A DNA stretch of 10,229 nt from a virus (Duplodnaviria > Heunggongvirae > Uroviricota > Caudoviricetes), in IMG/VR virus record IMGVR_UViG_2541047831_000006; one strand, 5' to 3'. The notes beneath the pieces were generated by a model. The model had not been told where the DNA came from. It saw only the letters and a list, made by a program, of their open reading frames with translations, and did not search any database. The translations under genes were made by a program, and so were the position numbers. How positions within the stretch are numbered: the stretch's first letter is position 1; each line of letters starts with the position of its first letter. Positions 2,715-9,961 of this stretch are shown piece after piece.

Positions 2715-2744
2715 TGAAGTGGTCAACAAAAACTGGCCACCGAG

Positions 2745-3892
<1,148 letters not shown>

Positions 3893-3964
3893 TATGGCAC
3901 CTGTGTTGTTCTGAGGTGAGCATATCACCTCTGTTCAGGTGGCCAAATTCAGTAAACCACTTCA

Positions 3965-4451
3965 AAAGTAATTCTGATAGAGCTGATGTATCATCATGAA
4001 CACCATCACCAATAGCCCCCCAACCTCTTACATCATAACTGTCTCTCCATCTTGCTATCTGAAGTTTTGGGTATTTATTCGCTCCATCTGGGTCTTCTAA
4101 TTGCTGCCGTAGTTGATCAGGATCATACTTCAGCACATTCTGGAAATAGAACTGCTGTACGCCATACGCATCGTACACAGCCATAGAATGGCCTTGCACA
4201 GTTACGAACTTGGCAATCCGTCCGTTATATACAGGGTAACCAGCAGCGTTAATGATGATTGGTTGCGAAACAGGAACGTGAGAGCCGTCTTCGTTCTCTA
4301 CATAAACCTGAATCCGGTTTTCAGGATTTACCGGGTCAGTGTCAATTTTACCGATATAAATTTTGCCATTGGCTACGGCTTTAAAAGAACGCGCCATAGT
4401 GAAGAGTTGCGAAGGCATCGATACAATCACATTGGCTGTAATGTCTGTCAT
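3965..4451 (-). pseudogene. Tailspike 5' portion: P22 gp9-like N-terminal head-binding domain followed by the start of the endosialidase region; reading frame runs into IS911
   Basis: N-terminus [11 protein letters not shown]...[21 protein letters not shown]...[10 protein letters not shown]...[13 protein letters not shown]...NVLKYDPDQ closely resembles the P22 tailspike head-binding domain. It then switches to endosialidase-like sequence ([20 protein letters not shown]) before the IS junction at 3964/3965. Start ATG at 4449..4451 with GGAG about 10 nt upstream. Confidence 0.85.
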
Positions 4452-4551: not shown

Positions 4552-5454
4552 TCAGTAATTATGTACTGAAGGAGGTAATTCTTTATTCTTAAGTCTCATC
4601 CATGCGGAAAGATTCGTTGGTCCGTCTGGCTCATTGATATCAACATCTCGTGTGTGATTGATTAAAACGTCTCTCGCCATATCGATAATACGGGAGAACT
4701 CATAACCGCAGTCATGACATCTGCCGGAATAGTTCGATTGAATTTGTTTTAGCGCCGGATACAGTTCGCGGAATAATGCCTGTGAGCGGTTGGCATAATC
4801 CCATAGCCATACAAGGCTGTTTGCTTCTTTTGCAGAAAGCTCGTTGGTTTTCTTCTCTTGTTTGCCGATGAACTCACCTTCAAGCACTACCCTGTGGATG
4901 TACTCTACTGCTTGTGGTATCTGAGATGCATCAAGCTCTTCAATACTTTCCACATTGAAACGCTGATGAATCATTGCATAAGCTTCTGGGTACATTAGAT
5001 GCTTTTTGCTGACTAGCATATTTACAGCATCACGAAGCGGAGTCCTGTCATCAACAGATGTTTTCTTCCGTGCATTTGCTGCCTCTCCCTTTGTCCAGTA
5101 GTCATGCAGCACAGTAAAGCATTCTTCCTGGTACTGAATCAGTTTATCGCGGATGTCAGCACGAACTTTCTCAGGGTTGATGCTGAACAGCCATCCATTT
5201 AACTTCTTCAAAGGAAGGCAGAGTAGCTTACGAAGCTTACCATCAGCGGCAACCATGTTCATATGAACACAGTTGAATTTGCTAATCTGCTTCATGAGTT
5301 TTGTTTGCTGCGTTGACCAGCTCATTCCGAGGTTTTCAACGATTGGCTTCATCGCAACATATGCAACTCCGGCAGCCATGGCGGTGATAATTTGCTGACC
5401 GTTGAATGGCACGTAAGAGGTGTTCACTGCTTCTAAAATTGCTATACTATTCAT
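4552..5454 (-). CDS. ant: Antirepressor Ant (P22 immI-type), about 300 aa; likely start at internal Met ([12 protein letters not shown]...) rather than the ORF-track start at 5520
   Basis: The ATG at 5452..5454 has GGAGA 8 nt upstream, while the ORF-track ATG at 5520 has no Shine-Dalgarno sequence. Gene order arc-ant-tailspike matches the P22 immI region. Identification as Ant rests on this context and on my recollection of the P22 Ant N-terminus. Confidence 0.7.
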
Positions 5455-5455
5455 G

Positions 5456-5522
5456 TTGGTTTTTCTCCACGGATTTACCGACAACCGAAGCCCTGACTGT
5501 TCCAGCAGTTGGGGCTTCACTG
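5456..5522 (+). ncRNA. Candidate sar-like antisense RNA (about 65-70 nt) complementary to the ant ribosome-binding region
   Basis: Plus-strand extended -10 element TGcTATACT (5441..5448) just inside the ant start. Downstream plus-strand hairpin GAAGCCC (5487..5493) / GGGCTTC (5512..5518) followed by a U-rich tract (TGTTTTGATTTCTTTG). The transcript would cover the ant Shine-Dalgarno (plus-strand TCTCC 5464..5468). Analogous to P22 sar. Confidence 0.3.
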
Positions 5523-5686: not shown

Positions 5687-5839
5687 TCACACCGTTACCC
5701 CCTCTCTCTTCAGGCTGTCTATCAGGCGCTTGATAACCTCTGAGTTAAACGACCTGCACTCTTCCTTTGCCCTGCTACCGATAGCATCCTTTAACGACTG
5801 CGGCATCCTTACCAAAATCTTACTTATTTCTTTCTCCAT
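5687..5839 (-). CDS. arc: Arc-like ribbon-helix-helix repressor (50 aa from the Met with the strong RBS)
   Basis: MEKEISKILVRMPQSLKDAIGSRAKEECRSFNSEVIKRLIDSLKREG resembles P22 Arc (..MPQFNLRWPREVLDLVRKVAEENGRSVNSEIYQRVMESFKKEG). GGAGG lies 6 nt upstream of the ATG at 5837..5839. The ORF-track start at 5875 lacks an RBS. Confidence 0.75.
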   Translation of the reverse strand: MEKEISKILVRMPQSLKDAIGSRAKEECRSFNSEVIKRLIDSLKREGVTV

Positions 5840-5953
5840 GTTACCCTCCACGCAAACAACTCTTTTCGAATACAAAAGATAGCAAAGTGAGTATATCTAG
5901 TCAAAATTTTTTTGCATACACTTTGCTATCAAATTGAATACCAAAGGTGTTAT
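5840..5953. promoter_or_regulatory. Divergent Pant/Pmnt-like promoter-operator region with a perfect 12-bp inverted repeat pair GATAGCAAAGTG (5878..5889) and CACTTTGCTATC (5919..5930)
   Basis: Minus-strand candidate promoter: -35 TTGACT (plus 5899..5904), 17-bp spacer, -10 TATCTT (plus 5876..5881) reading toward arc. Plus-strand candidate -35 TTGCAT (5913..5918) reading toward mnt. One copy of the 12-mer overlaps each promoter. Confidence 0.5.
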
Positions 5954-6202
5954 ATGGCAAAGGGTGTGTCAATTTCTCCAACTACGGTAAGAATCCCTGA
6001 ATCTTTACGCGAGGCTCTTGCTGTCAGAGCATCAAAAAATGGTCGCTCTGTTAACTCCGAGATCGTCATGATTTTGCAAGCCGCGATTGATGAAGATAGG
6101 TCGCCAAAGTCAGTTGAGTCATTTGCTCAGCAAGAAGCTGATAAATTCAAAGAGGCGCTACTTGAGACGCTAAAGACCATGTATGCTAAGGATGAAAAAT
6201 AA
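5954..6202 (+). CDS. mnt: Mnt-like ribbon-helix-helix repressor (82 aa from MAKG...)
   Basis: VRIPESLREALAVRASKNGRSVNSEIVMILQAAI and C-terminal EALLETLKTMYAK resemble P22 Mnt (FRMPMEVREKLKFRAEANGRSMNSELLQIVQDAL ... TLKDLYKK). Divergent from arc-ant as in P22 immI. RBS AAAGG upstream of the ATG at 5954. Confidence 0.75.
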   Translation: MAKGVSISPTTVRIPESLREALAVRASKNGRSVNSEIVMILQAAIDEDRSPKSVESFAQQEADKFKEALLETLKTMYAKDEK

Positions 6203-6738
6203 TGCTGCACACAATTCATTTCTTATGCCCTGTTAACACTGCCACTGTTGGGCAACTTCAGAACCACTGTCTCACCGCATTATCTCAAGGCGCAACTGAA
6301 TTAAATATCCATATATCAAGTCAGGGAGGGGAAACTGCTGCTGGCTTTACTGCGTATAACTTTCTTAAGTCACTCCCTGTTACCGTTAGAACTCACAACA
6401 TAAGCAATGTTGAATCCATAGCTAATATCGTTTTCCTGGCTGGCTCAGAACGTTTCGCAAACCCATTATCAAGATTCCTGTTACATCCTCTATTATGGTG
6501 CTTTGCCTCCCCAGCCGCCGACCATGCCAGATTGAGAGAGTACGGGAAATGCCTCGATAACGATCTTGATCGCTTCGTTGAGACGTTCAATATCGACATC
6601 GGAACCCATATTAGGTGGGCATCCCTGATAGCAGACTCGACCATTTTGGATGCTAACAAGGCTCTTGAGCATGGCATAATTAATTCCATAAAAACTGCAA
6701 GGCTGGCATCCAATCAGGCAAACTGGTGGGTTGTTTGA
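6202..6738 (+). CDS. ClpP-fold (peptidase S14-like) serine peptidase homolog, 178 aa, translationally coupled to mnt
   Basis: Start ATG overlaps the mnt stop (TAATG). Motifs ISSQGGETAAGF, NVESIANIVFLAGS, RFLLHP and DLDRF align by eye to ClpP INSPGGVITAG, GQAASMGAFLLTAG, RVMIHQP and TERDRF, with candidate Ser-His-Asp triad residues conserved. Lacks the ClpP N-terminal axial segment. Confidence 0.65.
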   Translation: MLHTIHFLCPVNTATVGQLQNHCLTALSQGATELNIHISSQGGETAAGFTAYNFLKSLPVTVRTHNISNVESIANIVFLAGSERFANPLSRFLLHPLLWCFASPAADHARLREYGKCLDNDLDRFVETFNIDIGTHIRWASLIADSTILDANKALEHGIINSIKTARLASNQANWWVV

Positions 6739-6786: not shown

Positions 6787-7236
6787 TTAGTCAAACATAG
6801 TGTTTCTAAAGTCTCTCGCATACCCTGCTAACACTCTCATTCTATTATGATTGTTAGCAGACATGTGAGCTACAGGATGAAAAAGAGCAATCAATGAATA
6901 CCTGTTCTCATCAAAAAGATTTTGTGCATAAACGAGAGCGGTATTGGATGTTTTATGCCACTGCAACTTTTGCGGTGTGCTGATATCTGTGCCATTTTTT
7001 ATTGGCTCAAATTTATTTTCACCAATTGCTAAATGAAGGTGCATAAGGCCTGCATCTTCAATATCAGGAGGTCGATGATAAGAGGTGTCTCTGCCAAAAT
7101 AGCTGGGCAACGTTCCCGTAGACTTGTAGATGATAAAATCATCTACAAGTGTTTGTTTTAAATCAGGAAACTCAACAAAAACCGGGGAGAAAAAATAGTC
7201 AAAACTATCCTGATTATATTCCACGGTTACTTGCAT
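6787..7236 (-). CDS. YafO-family-like toxin homolog (putative ribosome-dependent mRNA interferase), 149 aa; second gene of a two-gene operon
   Basis: By recollection of E. coli YafO: FIIYKSTGTLPSYFGRD vs FISYKRDGVLPDIFGRD; HLHLA vs HIHLA; ALVYAQNLFDE vs HLVYCQGAFDE; SLIALFHP vs LLIAILKP; NHNRMRVLAGYARDFR vs NNQMHKIGKMAEAFRM. GAGG RBS 6 nt upstream overlaps the upstream gene's TGA. Needs a database search to confirm. Confidence 0.5.
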   Translation of the reverse strand: MQVTVEYNQDSFDYFFSPVFVEFPDLKQTLVDDFIIYKSTGTLPSYFGRDTSYHRPPDIEDAGLMHLHLAIGENKFEPIKNGTDISTPQKLQWHKTSNTALVYAQNLFDENRYSLIALFHPVAHMSANNHNRMRVLAGYARDFRNTMFD

Positions 7237-7244
7237 GTTTTACC

Positions 7245-7811
7245 TCAGTGGAAGTTACCAGAGTGAAACACACGAGTCCCGTGCTCAGCAAGCGCACGCA
7301 AACCAGCCATATCTACGGAACTATCAAAAACAACCGGAACACATGAGCGTTGTTTAATAAGACTATTCAGGTTGGTTACGGCAGATCTGGCATCAGCAAC
7401 AACGATATAGATATCTCTTGCGATCTCTTTAAAATCAGCAGAAGCTTCTTTGAATACCGATTTCATTGCCCCTTCAAGTCCTCTCAATTGATGCTCTATC
7501 AATCGAGACTTTTCTGGTTCAATGATAGACAACACATTGTCTACATTCTCATCGGTAGCGTTTGCAAGAACACGATAAGCGTATTTCAGCATTCGAGACA
7601 ATTCTTTAATCGAAGACACCGCCTCATGAAGCTCATCATTAGCCCGTTCACTGCTGAATGAGGATTGATGGTAAGCGTGCTGAACGTTATCAGTAACAAC
7701 CACCTCACAACTGAACGCAGAAGCTTGCTGTAATAGCAAACCTATTGCGACTCCAGCTTTGGCAGCGTTCAAGCTAAACATTTCATCAATCCCATTAGTC
7801 TCATTGCTCAT
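7245..7811 (-). CDS. Hypothetical protein (188 aa from the Met with the AGGAGG RBS), first gene of the operon with the YafO-like gene; candidate antitoxin or sensor partner
   Basis: Strong RBS AAGGAGG 5-6 nt upstream of the ATG at 7809..7811; the ORF-track start at 7841 lacks one. Predicted largely helical; no motif I can assign. Its stop is 8 nt upstream of the YafO-like start. Confidence 0.55.
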   Translation of the reverse strand: MSNETNGIDEMFSLNAAKAGVAIGLLLQQASAFSCEVVVTDNVQHAYHQSSFSSERANDELHEAVSSIKELSRMLKYAYRVLANATDENVDNVLSIIEPEKSRLIEHQLRGLEGAMKSVFKEASADFKEIARDIYIVVADARSAVTNLNSLIKQRSCVPVVFDSSVDMAGLRALAEHGTRVFHSGNFH

Positions 7812-7986
7812 ACAAACCTCCTTCTTATCGGAGATTATCAATAGCTATGCATCCATTGAATACACGCTATGCGCAATAAGTTTACGTCACGTGATATCAT
7901 TATGCAACCACCGTTCTATCACCGACTAACTTTACTCCCACTCCTATACATCATCTGGTATCCTGCGCAAAACTAAGGAGGTTGGT
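7812..7986. promoter_or_regulatory. Divergent intergenic region between the hypothetical/YafO-like operon and the membrane-protein gene; contains overlapping palindromes TCACGTGA (7887..7894) and GATATC (7893..7898)
   Basis: Strong Shine-Dalgarno sequences on both flanks imply promoters for both divergent transcription units lie here. No confident -10/-35 assignment. Confidence 0.3.
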
Positions 7987-8337
7987 GTGAATGCTCAGTC
8001 TGTCATCATGGTTTTCCTTGGGCTGATTGTCGCAAAACTATATCCAGACTGGTGGAAAGGGGCATTAGCTACTGTCGCCATCTATTTGCTTTTATCCATC
8101 GTTAAGCGATCACTCGCTGAGACCGTAAATCAAGCAAAACGTTTCTCATTTAAGAGTTTAATAAACTATGTTACTGGGCTTATTTTTTGCCTTTCAATTC
8201 TGATCGCTTCGGCTTTTTTGCCCGTATCAATAGCTAATTTTTTTGGCGCACCATATGAGGTAGGTTATCTATTCTCTGTTTCCTGTCTTGCCATTGCTCT
8301 TCTTTACCTGTGGACGAGATCAAAGAATAAAAATTAG
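7987..8337 (+). CDS. Small integral membrane protein (116 aa, about 4 predicted transmembrane helices), GTG start
   Basis: AAGGAGG (7974..7980) 6 nt upstream of the GTG at 7987. Four hydrophobic segments (SVIMVFLGLIVAKLY; ALATVAIYLLLSIV; YVTGLIFCLSILIASAFL; YLFSVSCLAIALLYLW). Confidence 0.6.
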   Translation: MNAQSVIMVFLGLIVAKLYPDWWKGALATVAIYLLLSIVKRSLAETVNQAKRFSFKSLINYVTGLIFCLSILIASAFLPVSIANFFGAPYEVGYLFSVSCLAIALLYLWTRSKNKN

Positions 8338-8354
8338 CCATCCGTGGCTGCCAG

Positions 8355-8630
8355 TTATTGAGCTTCTTTTTGTGATGCCTGTGCGACTCTGGTGAGCGAT
8401 TGTGTGACCGTACTGATCGCTCTGTCATATGCTGTGCTACCTTTTGGCGTATTTGCCAGACGTAACAAGGCATTTCGTATAACAGGGCTTTCGTATGCCT
8501 TCGCAGCTCCTCCTACGACACCAGCAGCAGGAACAACAAACGCAGCCGTTTTTAGCATCCCCGCTAATACTGCTGCGTTTATGATGCCACCACCAACTAA
8601 CAATCCATAAAGCTGCTGACCATTTAAGTT
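8355..8630 (-). pseudogene. Possible 3' fragment of a gene truncated by IS911 copy 2 (Gly/Ala-rich hydrophobic segment, then a polar C-terminus)
   Basis: The minus-strand frame is open from the IS boundary (8630) through to the stop at 8355. The only in-frame starts are TTG (8603) and an ATG (8558) with a weak RBS. No target-site duplication at this IS copy. Confidence 0.3.
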
Positions 8631-8702
8631 TGAAGTGGTTTACTGAATTTGGCCACCTGAACAGAGGTGATATGCTCACCTCAGAACAACACAGGTGCCA
8701 TA

Positions 8703-9850
<1,148 letters not shown>

Positions 9851-9961
9851 CTCGGTGGCCAGTTTTTGTTGACCACTTCACTATGACCACTGGATGCTGT
9901 GGGCGCAGATAGCACATGCAGACGTAACTAATATTCGAATTGAAGAACTGAAAGAACACCA

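Follow-up and report, generated by a model that had tools for sequence, protein, structure and literature searches.

What kind of protein is encoded at positions 7987-8337 of the viral DNA considered here, and could it serve to keep other phages out of the cell that carries it? The window, by which we mean the whole stretch of 10,229 nucleotides (nt) that was analysed (IMG/VR virus record IMGVR_UViG_2541047831_000006; Caudoviricetes), is 99.9-100% identical to the P22-like prophage that sits at tRNA-Arg/intS in Escherichia coli (E. coli) of the S88 / APEC O1 / ATCC 11775 type. The original prediction, made from the letters of the window alone, described a small four-helix membrane protein of 116 amino acids (aa), transcribed divergently from a toxin-like operon, and suggested superinfection exclusion by a block of DNA entry as its role. 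We tentatively propose, as a reading for which we see the case as almost but not quite evenly balanced, that the gene encodes a prophage-expressed inner-membrane superinfection-exclusion protein directed against P22-like phages, that is, an analogue and not a homologue of the P22 protein SieA. This reading is supported by the slot, orientation and start signals of sieA, by the linkage to gene 16 (which encodes an ejection protein), by the four helices, and by purifying selection. Expression in the lysogen, location in the inner membrane, the target, and the exclusion phenotype itself are what we infer.

The listing of open reading frames (ORFs) of the window contains several spurious ORFs longer than 100 aa, and therefore the length of an ORF alone proves nothing here and selection has to decide. 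Comparison with the Yersinia copy over the whole ORF gave a nonsynonymous divergence (dN) of 0.18 and a synonymous divergence (dS) of 1.28, the latter being saturated, with a dN/dS ratio of 0.13-0.14, and comparisons with closer copies gave ratios of 0.35-0.46. The reading frame, the start context, and the hydrophobic and charge patterns all persist among relatives sharing only 37-40% identity, and the ORF has stayed intact inside decayed prophages, i.e., the one in the present window and the O111 remnant beside ykgL. The stretch 7987-8337 is a genuine gene under purifying selection, and the 116-aa ORF with a GTG start and a strong ribosome-binding site (AAGGAGG, 5 nt upstream) that had been called on the + strand is upheld.

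The exact start deserves attention, since the RefSeq product (Prokaryotic Genome Annotation Pipeline) is a 109-aa protein beginning at ATG 8008 (S88 and PE144 are among the genomes so annotated) and the annotations of other alleles extend spuriously at the N-terminus (129-151 aa). Four relatives at 37-40% identity start with ATG, share the N-terminus MN.Q and carry Ile or Thr at the RefSeq Met-8 position, the E. coli allele P0006 has Ile at the RefSeq start position, and a comparison of close homologues showed that the GGAGG-N5-GTG spacing is retained in E. coli variants, Yersinia and Edwardsiella. With Met-8 replaced in these relatives and this allele, MN.Q kept in the four relatives, and GGAGG-N5-GTG kept in the close homologues, GTG 7987 is, as judged from the alignments, the conserved and correct start, and the RefSeq call at ATG 8008 is too short.

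The signals in front of this start codon are those of sieA. A 34-nt block, TGGTATCCTGCnCAAAACTAAGGAGGTTGGTGTG, start codon included (34-40 nt for the leader), is nearly identical before the ORF and before P22 sieA; the block TGGTATCC...GTG recurs almost unchanged upstream of P22 sieA and in part upstream of HS1 sieA. The leader consensus, GGTATCCTGCnCAAAACTAAGGAGGTTGGTGTG, lies directly 5' of the ORF with an exact match at 7957-7989, and the ORF begins at the GTG of the leader. The leader block is present in 69 sequenced phages, including P22, HK620 (in front of hkcB) and epsilon34 (gene 14), in at least 120 IMG/VR contigs (exact-match scan), and in about 250 additional E. coli genomes that match the leader block alone. 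In full it also precedes unrelated ORFs in E. coli UMNF18, AF46 and NCTC8623, the last being an unannotated 62-aa ORF with two transmembrane (TM) helices (L011:4038-4226). The ORF alleles of U14A, O111 and Yersinia keep only GGAGG-N5-GTG of the leader. We infer a promoter inside the leader from the conserved block and the candidate -10 elements (Table 1); no sigma-70 -35/-10 pair turned up on the + strand in a consensus scan, and Rfam gave nothing in 7842-8350. It has been reported that a single copy of P22 sieA preceded by 85 bp of its upstream DNA is enough to confer exclusion (Leavitt et al. 2024, PMC10883804), which supports expression signals lying close to the gene.

The position is that of sieA as well. 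In P22, gene 16 (+) and sieA (-) converge across a 22-nt gap; here, gene 16 is on the - strand and the ORF on the + strand, with the gene 16 remnant, cut by an insertion sequence (IS) of the ISEc52 type, converging on the ORF across 17 nt. In all non-remnant contexts the ORF is convergent with the 3' end of a gene 16 homologue, an adjacency that we found in E. coli S88, U14A, Yersinia, Edwardsiella, and the contigs L027, L028 and L150, with ORF identity down to 37-40%. Five of these seven independent contexts have a gap of 17 nt, the exceptions being U14A with 18 nt and L028 with 21 nt. Gene 16 (product, gp16) is the only constant neighbour of the ORF across contexts. At the other end of the gene, the stop codon of the ORF sits inside a hairpin, TAGCCATCC(A/G)TGGC (8335-8349), next to the stop of gene 16, and on the - strand this hairpin looks like a terminator after gene 16. 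The expectation of a small membrane protein with several predicted helices, encoded in the variable region that separates gene 16 from the tailspike gene and opposite to the late operon strand, was borne out, as was its conservation among related prophages (E. coli, Yersinia, Edwardsiella, and metagenomic contigs). In two of these contigs (L027:4232-4453 and L028:~1819-2037), a conserved two-TM ORF of about 73 aa (...GFDWKMAVCLTLPG.NVIAW.ALAF..WPIHKY), which has no Pfam match, stands on the same strand before the ~40%-identity homologues.

The predicted architecture is that of a small polytopic membrane protein. Hydropathy revealed four hydrophobic stretches (residues ~5-19, 25-39, 58-86, and 92-110), and two AlphaFold runs agreed on four helices (residues 3-18, 22-48/49, 55-85, and 90-114/115), as had been foreseen from the sequence; the pLDDT (predicted local distance difference test) values of the models were only 57 and 64, and we therefore used the secondary structure alone. 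In a 10-member alignment, the invariant residues fall into the N-terminus (M1 N2 Q4 ... V15 K17 L18 Y19 P20) and helix 3 (Y61 G64 L65 F67 P79). The loop 40-57 carries a charge of +3 to +6 and the C-terminal tail one of +1 to +3, with the two short turns being neutral or acidic, in 10 of 10 aligned members. Because of this charge pattern, the positive-inside rule would indicate an inner-membrane protein with both termini in the cytoplasm (N-in/C-in) and with the turns KLYPDWW and GAPYE on the periplasmic side. The hydrophobic part of helix 1, like that of helix 2, amounts to just some 15 residues, and this first hairpin may therefore be too short to cross the bilayer completely.

The leader is also informative about the site as such. 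We translated from the leader GTG and sorted the products into classes, with 117 complete cases among the matches listed, to which all counts of classes and loci in this paragraph refer. At least 12 unrelated classes of small ORFs stand behind the leader at these 117 loci, and in 11 of these classes the product opens with a hydrophobic segment. HkcB-like proteins (one TM helix followed by a coiled coil; 28 loci) and a 129-aa secreted protein (25) are the most frequent, followed by a 62-aa two-TM ORF (11), a 75-aa two-TM ORF (9), a second class with one TM helix and a coiled coil (9), SieA type A (8), a 140-aa soluble protein (6), a 149-aa one-TM protein (5), the 116-aa protein under study (5) and, at the remaining loci, three smaller classes. 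In most cassette classes the stop codon lies within the TAGCCATCC(A/G)TGGC hairpin, which thus forms a common 3' boundary, and the hairpin followed by ATCTGGAGGTT(A/G)AT(A/G)TG joins two cassettes in some phages and at the Yersinia locus. Outside the present prophage, the leader abuts different upstream DNA. Because leader and hairpin frame unrelated ORF classes, the site next to gene 16 appears to be an expression slot in which the 5' and 3' adaptors stay constant and the content is exchanged, and it looks like a site of cassette exchange. SieA is the only occupant of this hypervariable slot with a known function. The slot may gather several kinds of envelope function, since it also carries secreted proteins and one soluble protein.

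A few details of the cassettes are worth recording. The linker TAGCCATCC(A/G)TGGCT(A/T)T(C/A)TGGAG(G/A)TTAA(T/C)ATG (GAT-GTG in Yersinia) connects the first cassette to a second ORF, which is a 21-22-aa single-TM peptide (MVTVGWII...) in the IMG/VR contigs L047 and L078 (cassette classes 10 and 12) and the 116-aa ORF itself in Yersinia (L005:7621-7980), where a secreted 110-aa ORF precedes it. Escherichia phage N7 (L153) has a class 11 ORF in its slot (5013-5333), of 106 aa and with a single TM helix, and the leader before it is a different one.

The link with gene 16 extends to the kind of gp16. All homologues of the ORF adjoin one gp16 lineage, whose full-length members are 64-90% identical to S88 gp16 (63% for the part available in L150), whereas the gp16 proteins encoded beside SieA or HkcB-type cassettes share no more than 30-35% identity with this S88-type lineage. 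A strict pairing of ORF and gp16 lineage can be dismissed, the relation holding in one direction only, since phage N7 carries the lineage with another cassette. The ORF has diverged faster than its neighbour (38-40% identity vs. 63-65% for gp16), as expected of a gene engaged in conflict. In Edwardsiella tarda (L008) and the metagenome-assembled L150, the pair of gene 16 and the ORF lies beside primase (DUF927/PriCT-2), single-stranded DNA-binding protein and AlpA-type genes, a neighbourhood that stands in place of the tailspike and the immunity I region; this suggests a differently organised P22-like relative or another kind of element.

How the protein could work can be outlined on the analogy with SieA. 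[quoted passage not shown] The part of gp16 in which these two substitutions fall is encoded right beside the slot, and its homologue persists in the window. Under the proposed mechanism, a weak constitutive promoter within the leader would provide transcription and the strong Shine-Dalgarno sequence translation from GTG 7987. The protein would insert as two helical hairpins, leaving the termini and the basic 40-57 loop in the cytoplasm and the KLYPDWW and GAPYE turns in the periplasm. A P22-like phage would then adsorb and release its ejection proteins, but the gp20/gp16 conduit would be hindered in its assembly or its opening at the inner membrane, and no DNA would enter; the interference could come about through binding of the membrane-inserting C-terminal part of gp16 or through occupation of a host partner. 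A more specific version, in which the gene founds a new, non-homologous exclusion family that sits in a cassette-exchange hotspot displaying at least 12 unrelated envelope-directed proteins, has co-descended with one gp16 lineage and recognises the membrane-inserting C-terminus of gp16 by its conserved, periplasm-facing KLYPDWW hairpin, strikes us, taken as a whole, as doubtful.

Several observations weigh against a role as a SieA analogue. A profile of ten family sequences aligned with a profile of ten SieA sequences at an hhalign probability of just 0.2%. The conserved C-terminal cytoplasmic motif of SieA, FxRYPxEAxxFNK (PMC10883804), occurs neither in the translation nor in any of the ten aligned members of the family, the C-terminus here reading ...LLYLWTRSKNKN, and since the best-conserved part is the N-terminal hairpin with its periplasmic turn, as opposed to a C-terminal motif in SieA, the two may not share a mechanism. 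Secreted proteins and one soluble protein also stand in this slot behind this leader, so that position alone is no proof of a block to DNA entry. Further, phage N7 has an S88-type gp16 at 70% identity together with a different cassette, and because of this the link between the ORF and gp16 may be plain physical linkage. Finally, searches of a collection of 50,697 cultured phage genomes by tblastn and megablast found no copy of the gene.

Direct descent from SieA was considered separately and ruled out, with BLASTP E values of 0.29 against P22 SieA and 7.3 against HS1 SieA; consistent with this, the precomputed Pfam assignments hold none for any member of the 116-aa family, and the SieA relatives carry PF26849. 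The earlier statement that small membrane proteins at this locus commonly mediate superinfection exclusion is thus right in so far as the sieA slot, leader and GTG are matched, but as a generalisation it went too far, because, among the proteins of the slot, exclusion tests have covered SieA types A and B only (PMC10883804) and the 116-aa protein has no homology to them.

Alternatively, the protein might act against phages in a way that does not resemble SieA, that is, as a membrane protein of phage defence or lysogenic conversion that excludes other phages at the envelope (cf. HK97 gp15 and T4 Imm) or depolarises the membrane in a RexB-like abortive infection. A hypervariable slot filled with unrelated envelope proteins, the lack of homology to SieA, the predicted four-TM architecture, and the rapid divergence relative to gp16 would all suit such a protein; yet it has no PADLOC or Pfam match and stays below the threshold of Phage_holin_3_6, and no partner gene is conserved beside the ORF across contexts, gene 16 being the sole constant neighbour. 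We consider this explanation unlikely, albeit one to be taken seriously. Small membrane regulators are common in enterobacteria, and the gene could also be a lysogenic-conversion factor unrelated to phages, one that modulates a transporter, sensor or the envelope of the host to the benefit of a K1 extraintestinal pathogen. That the ORF is kept intact in prophage remnants of pathogenic lineages (sequence type 95 (ST95), O111), and is found in 227 of 5426 complete E. coli genomes, speaks for such a role. However, such a role hardly accounts for the tight bond that the ORF keeps, across genera, with the sieA leader on one side and the 3' end of gene 16 on the other, and its occurrence in Yersinia, Edwardsiella and unidentified hosts ties it to a type of phage and not to the niche of a host, which makes a host-directed function improbable in our view.

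Two further explanations carry much less weight. The gene could belong to the divergent YafO-toxin module (6787-7841), as an immunity factor, membrane anchor or regulator. In the present prophage it does share a divergent intergenic region of 145-175 bp with the operon of the 198-aa ORF and the YafO gene, both of which are on the - strand, so the divergent arrangement described in the original prediction holds; but neither the YafO nor the 198-aa gene accompanies the homologues in Yersinia (L005), Edwardsiella (L008), U14A (L007), O111 (L006), L027, L028 and L150, and the leader abuts different upstream DNA in other prophages. The module being absent from seven other contexts of the family, we rejected membership in it as a very slim prospect, and the tie to the toxin-like operon that headed the original prediction turns out to be an incidental matter of neighbourhood. 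The slimmest prospect of all is that the ORF is conserved without being functional, through its overlap with late-operon signals, namely the terminator of gene 16. Its last codons, AAT AAA AAT TAG, are indeed complementary to the T-run and stem of the terminator-like hairpin of gene 16, but this overlap is merely ~12 nt, whereas dN/dS is 0.13-0.14 over the entire ORF at a dS of ~1.3, and frame, start context, and hydrophobic and charge patterns are maintained at 37-40% identity. A holin was also considered and rejected (Phage_holin_3_6, PF07332: E = 0.065, 13.7 bits against a cutoff of 28.4), with no lysis genes nearby.

The 116-aa family has few members, all of them in P22-like elements of Enterobacterales. 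A profile search with a hidden Markov model (HMM) recovered 7 representatives at 50% identity among 1.84 billion, and a word-indexed search of 5.8 billion proteins placed the family in 24 clusters at 90% identity. The above-mentioned 227 complete E. coli genomes (~4%), ST95 K1 pathogens included, each contain at least 80% of the ORF, and the gene is annotated as hypothetical in hundreds of genomes; a pattern scan of species-representative genomes confirmed no locus. The 116-aa protein had no significant match in Pfam, PHROGs, PADLOC or NCBIfam (for the defence-system HMMs of PADLOC-DB v2, none at E <= 0.1), although these negatives carry little weight for PADLOC, Pfam and NCBIfam as scanned, where SieA itself is unmatched. 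A profile search found no match among PDB sequences, and Foldseek with the AlphaFold models against BFVD and PDB gave nothing at E <= 0.001, the models being too uncertain for an inference of fold. A literature search found no functional study of the 116-aa gene or of hkcB.

The remainder of the window (Table 1) corresponds to the "ant moron" region of the APEC-1/UTI-1/S88-type K1 prophage, with mnt, arc, sar, ant and further genes, and the late operon on the - strand. Villafane et al. (2008; PMC2629481) drew this region for P22-like phages, including the prophages APEC-1 and UTI-1, and described its variability; their text, as read here, says nothing on a shared sieA leader or on the membrane nature of the ORF, and the "unique" genes were left unassigned. 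The mnt-like gene is on the same strand as the 116-aa gene, just as had been pointed out, and overlaps the ClpP-family gene by ATGA, a pair that recurs in a distant P22-like contig (L027:3246-4036); the ClpP-like gene is a member of the immunity I region without an obvious role. Because the sar RNA is intact, the arc/ant control circuit appears to be preserved in the remnant. The 198-aa ORF occupies the position of an antitoxin before YafO and is much larger than the usual YafN-type antitoxin. One of the two IS copies splits the tailspike gene, and the other truncates gene 16 and abuts torI; therefore, most of the prophage is gone. The pair brackets the variable region in a manner reminiscent of a composite transposon.

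Table 1. Features of the window, in order of position (strand as given in the window; helices numbered from the N-terminus of the 116-aa protein).
Feature	Position	Strand	Remarks
Tailspike gene, split by IS	253-2466 and 3861-4451	-	Late operon
ISEc52-like IS3-family copies	2715-3971 and 8624-9880		Identical, 1257 nt, inverted
ant	4552-5520
sar antisense RNA	5455-5521	+	Rfam RF00262, 83.9 bits; intact; sole Rfam match in the window
arc	5687-5875
mnt-like ribbon-helix-helix repressor gene	5912-6202	+
ClpP-family protease gene	6202-6738	+	178 aa; Pfam CLP_protease, 2e-11
YafO-family toxin gene	6787-7236	-	Pfam, 3e-22
198-aa ORF (188/198 aa)	7245-7841	-	Coiled coil; phrog_8416; weak match to the ZorA C-terminus
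Alternative -10 element, CATCAT	7948-7953	+	At the 5' edge of the block; TATCAT in other cassettes
Conserved sieA-type leader, ATCATCTGGTATCCTGCGCAAAACTAAGGAGGTTGGTGTG	7950-7989	+	Likely core promoter, short 5' untranslated region, Shine-Dalgarno sequence, GTG
Candidate extended -10 element, TGgTATCCT	7956-7964	+	Read from the sequence
Shine-Dalgarno sequence, AAGGAGG	7975-7981	+	5-nt spacer to GTG 7987
Coding sequence, predicted four-helix membrane protein	7987-8337	+	116 codons, GTG start, TAG stop
Helix 1, residues 3-18	7993-8040	+	AlphaFold and alignment; ends in invariant V15-A-K17-L-Y-P20
Helix 2, residues 22-49	8050-8133	+	Membrane part ~25-39, followed by basic loop 40-57, predicted cytoplasmic
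Helix 3, residues 55-85	8149-8241	+	Most hydrophobic and best-conserved segment; Y61, G64, L65, F67, P79 invariant
Helix 4, residues 90-115	8254-8331	+	Followed by basic tail RSKNKN
Hairpin AGCCATCCGTGGCT	8336-8349		Overlaps the TAG stop; T-run after it on the - strand
Gene 16 (ejection protein), C-terminal remnant	8355-8623	-	Last 80-90 codons; phrog_29117, 2e-40; phrog_770, DNA transfer protein, 8e-19

Judging from the searchable literature, three aspects of these results appear to be new: a non-SieA membrane protein in the sieA slot behind the sieA leader, the framing by leader and hairpin of at least 12 unrelated cassettes (among the matches listed), and the association of the 116-aa family with one gp16 lineage. 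If the more specific version of the mechanism, with recognition of the gp16 C-terminus by the KLYPDWW hairpin, is true, it would represent a second, independent solution to the blocking of the P22-type DNA conduit. Leavitt et al. (PMC10883804) found it hard to see how two SieA types with a mere 24% identity can act against phages whose ejection proteins differ greatly, and a third, unrelated and smaller (116 aa) protein of the slot would be a minimal independent probe of how short-tailed phages pass DNA through the inner membrane. The shared leader also offers a simple harvesting rule, that is, every ORF starting at its GTG is a candidate, hkcB and epsilon34 gene 14 included, and the ORFs of the slot are testable in the single-copy assay established for sieA. 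With the gene present in ~4% of complete E. coli genomes, ST95 K1 strains among them, it could affect susceptibility to K1-specific or P22-like therapeutic phages. Should there be no exclusion effect, the gene stays an ordinary moron gene.

Compared with its fellow occupants of the slot, the 116-aa ORF has the leader, the GTG position and the adjacency to gene 16 in common with HkcB of HK620, gene 14 of epsilon34, and the 62-aa, 75-aa and 129-aa ORFs, and most of these classes also share its 3' hairpin, yet the sequences and architectures are unrelated; HkcB, for instance, consists of one TM helix and a coiled coil, as opposed to four predicted helices in the 116-aa protein. T4 Imm, HK97 gp15 and lambda RexB are small inner-membrane proteins of phages or prophages that act at or after DNA entry. 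They belong to other phage groups and positions than the 116-aa ORF, which has no Pfam, PHROGs or PADLOC match, and RexB, a four-TM protein, requires RexA, whereas the 116-aa gene has no conserved partner. HK97 gp15 is also cited by Leavitt et al. (PMC10883804). SieA type A (P22) and type B (HS1), at 164 and 212 aa, are larger than the 116-aa protein, have three or four predicted TM helices next to the four predicted helices and the positive-inside pattern seen here, and keep their conserved core in the C-terminal cytoplasmic motif, and not in an N-terminal hairpin (MN.Q...VAKLYP) and helix 3 as in the 116-aa protein. The two have the following in common: their genes directly follow gene 16 and run towards it, inside the variable region that gene 9 bounds on its other side; they share a near-identical leader, Shine-Dalgarno sequence and GTG; they lie on the strand opposite to the late operon; and SieA is, like the predicted 116-aa product, a small multi-pass membrane protein that lacks a signal peptide.

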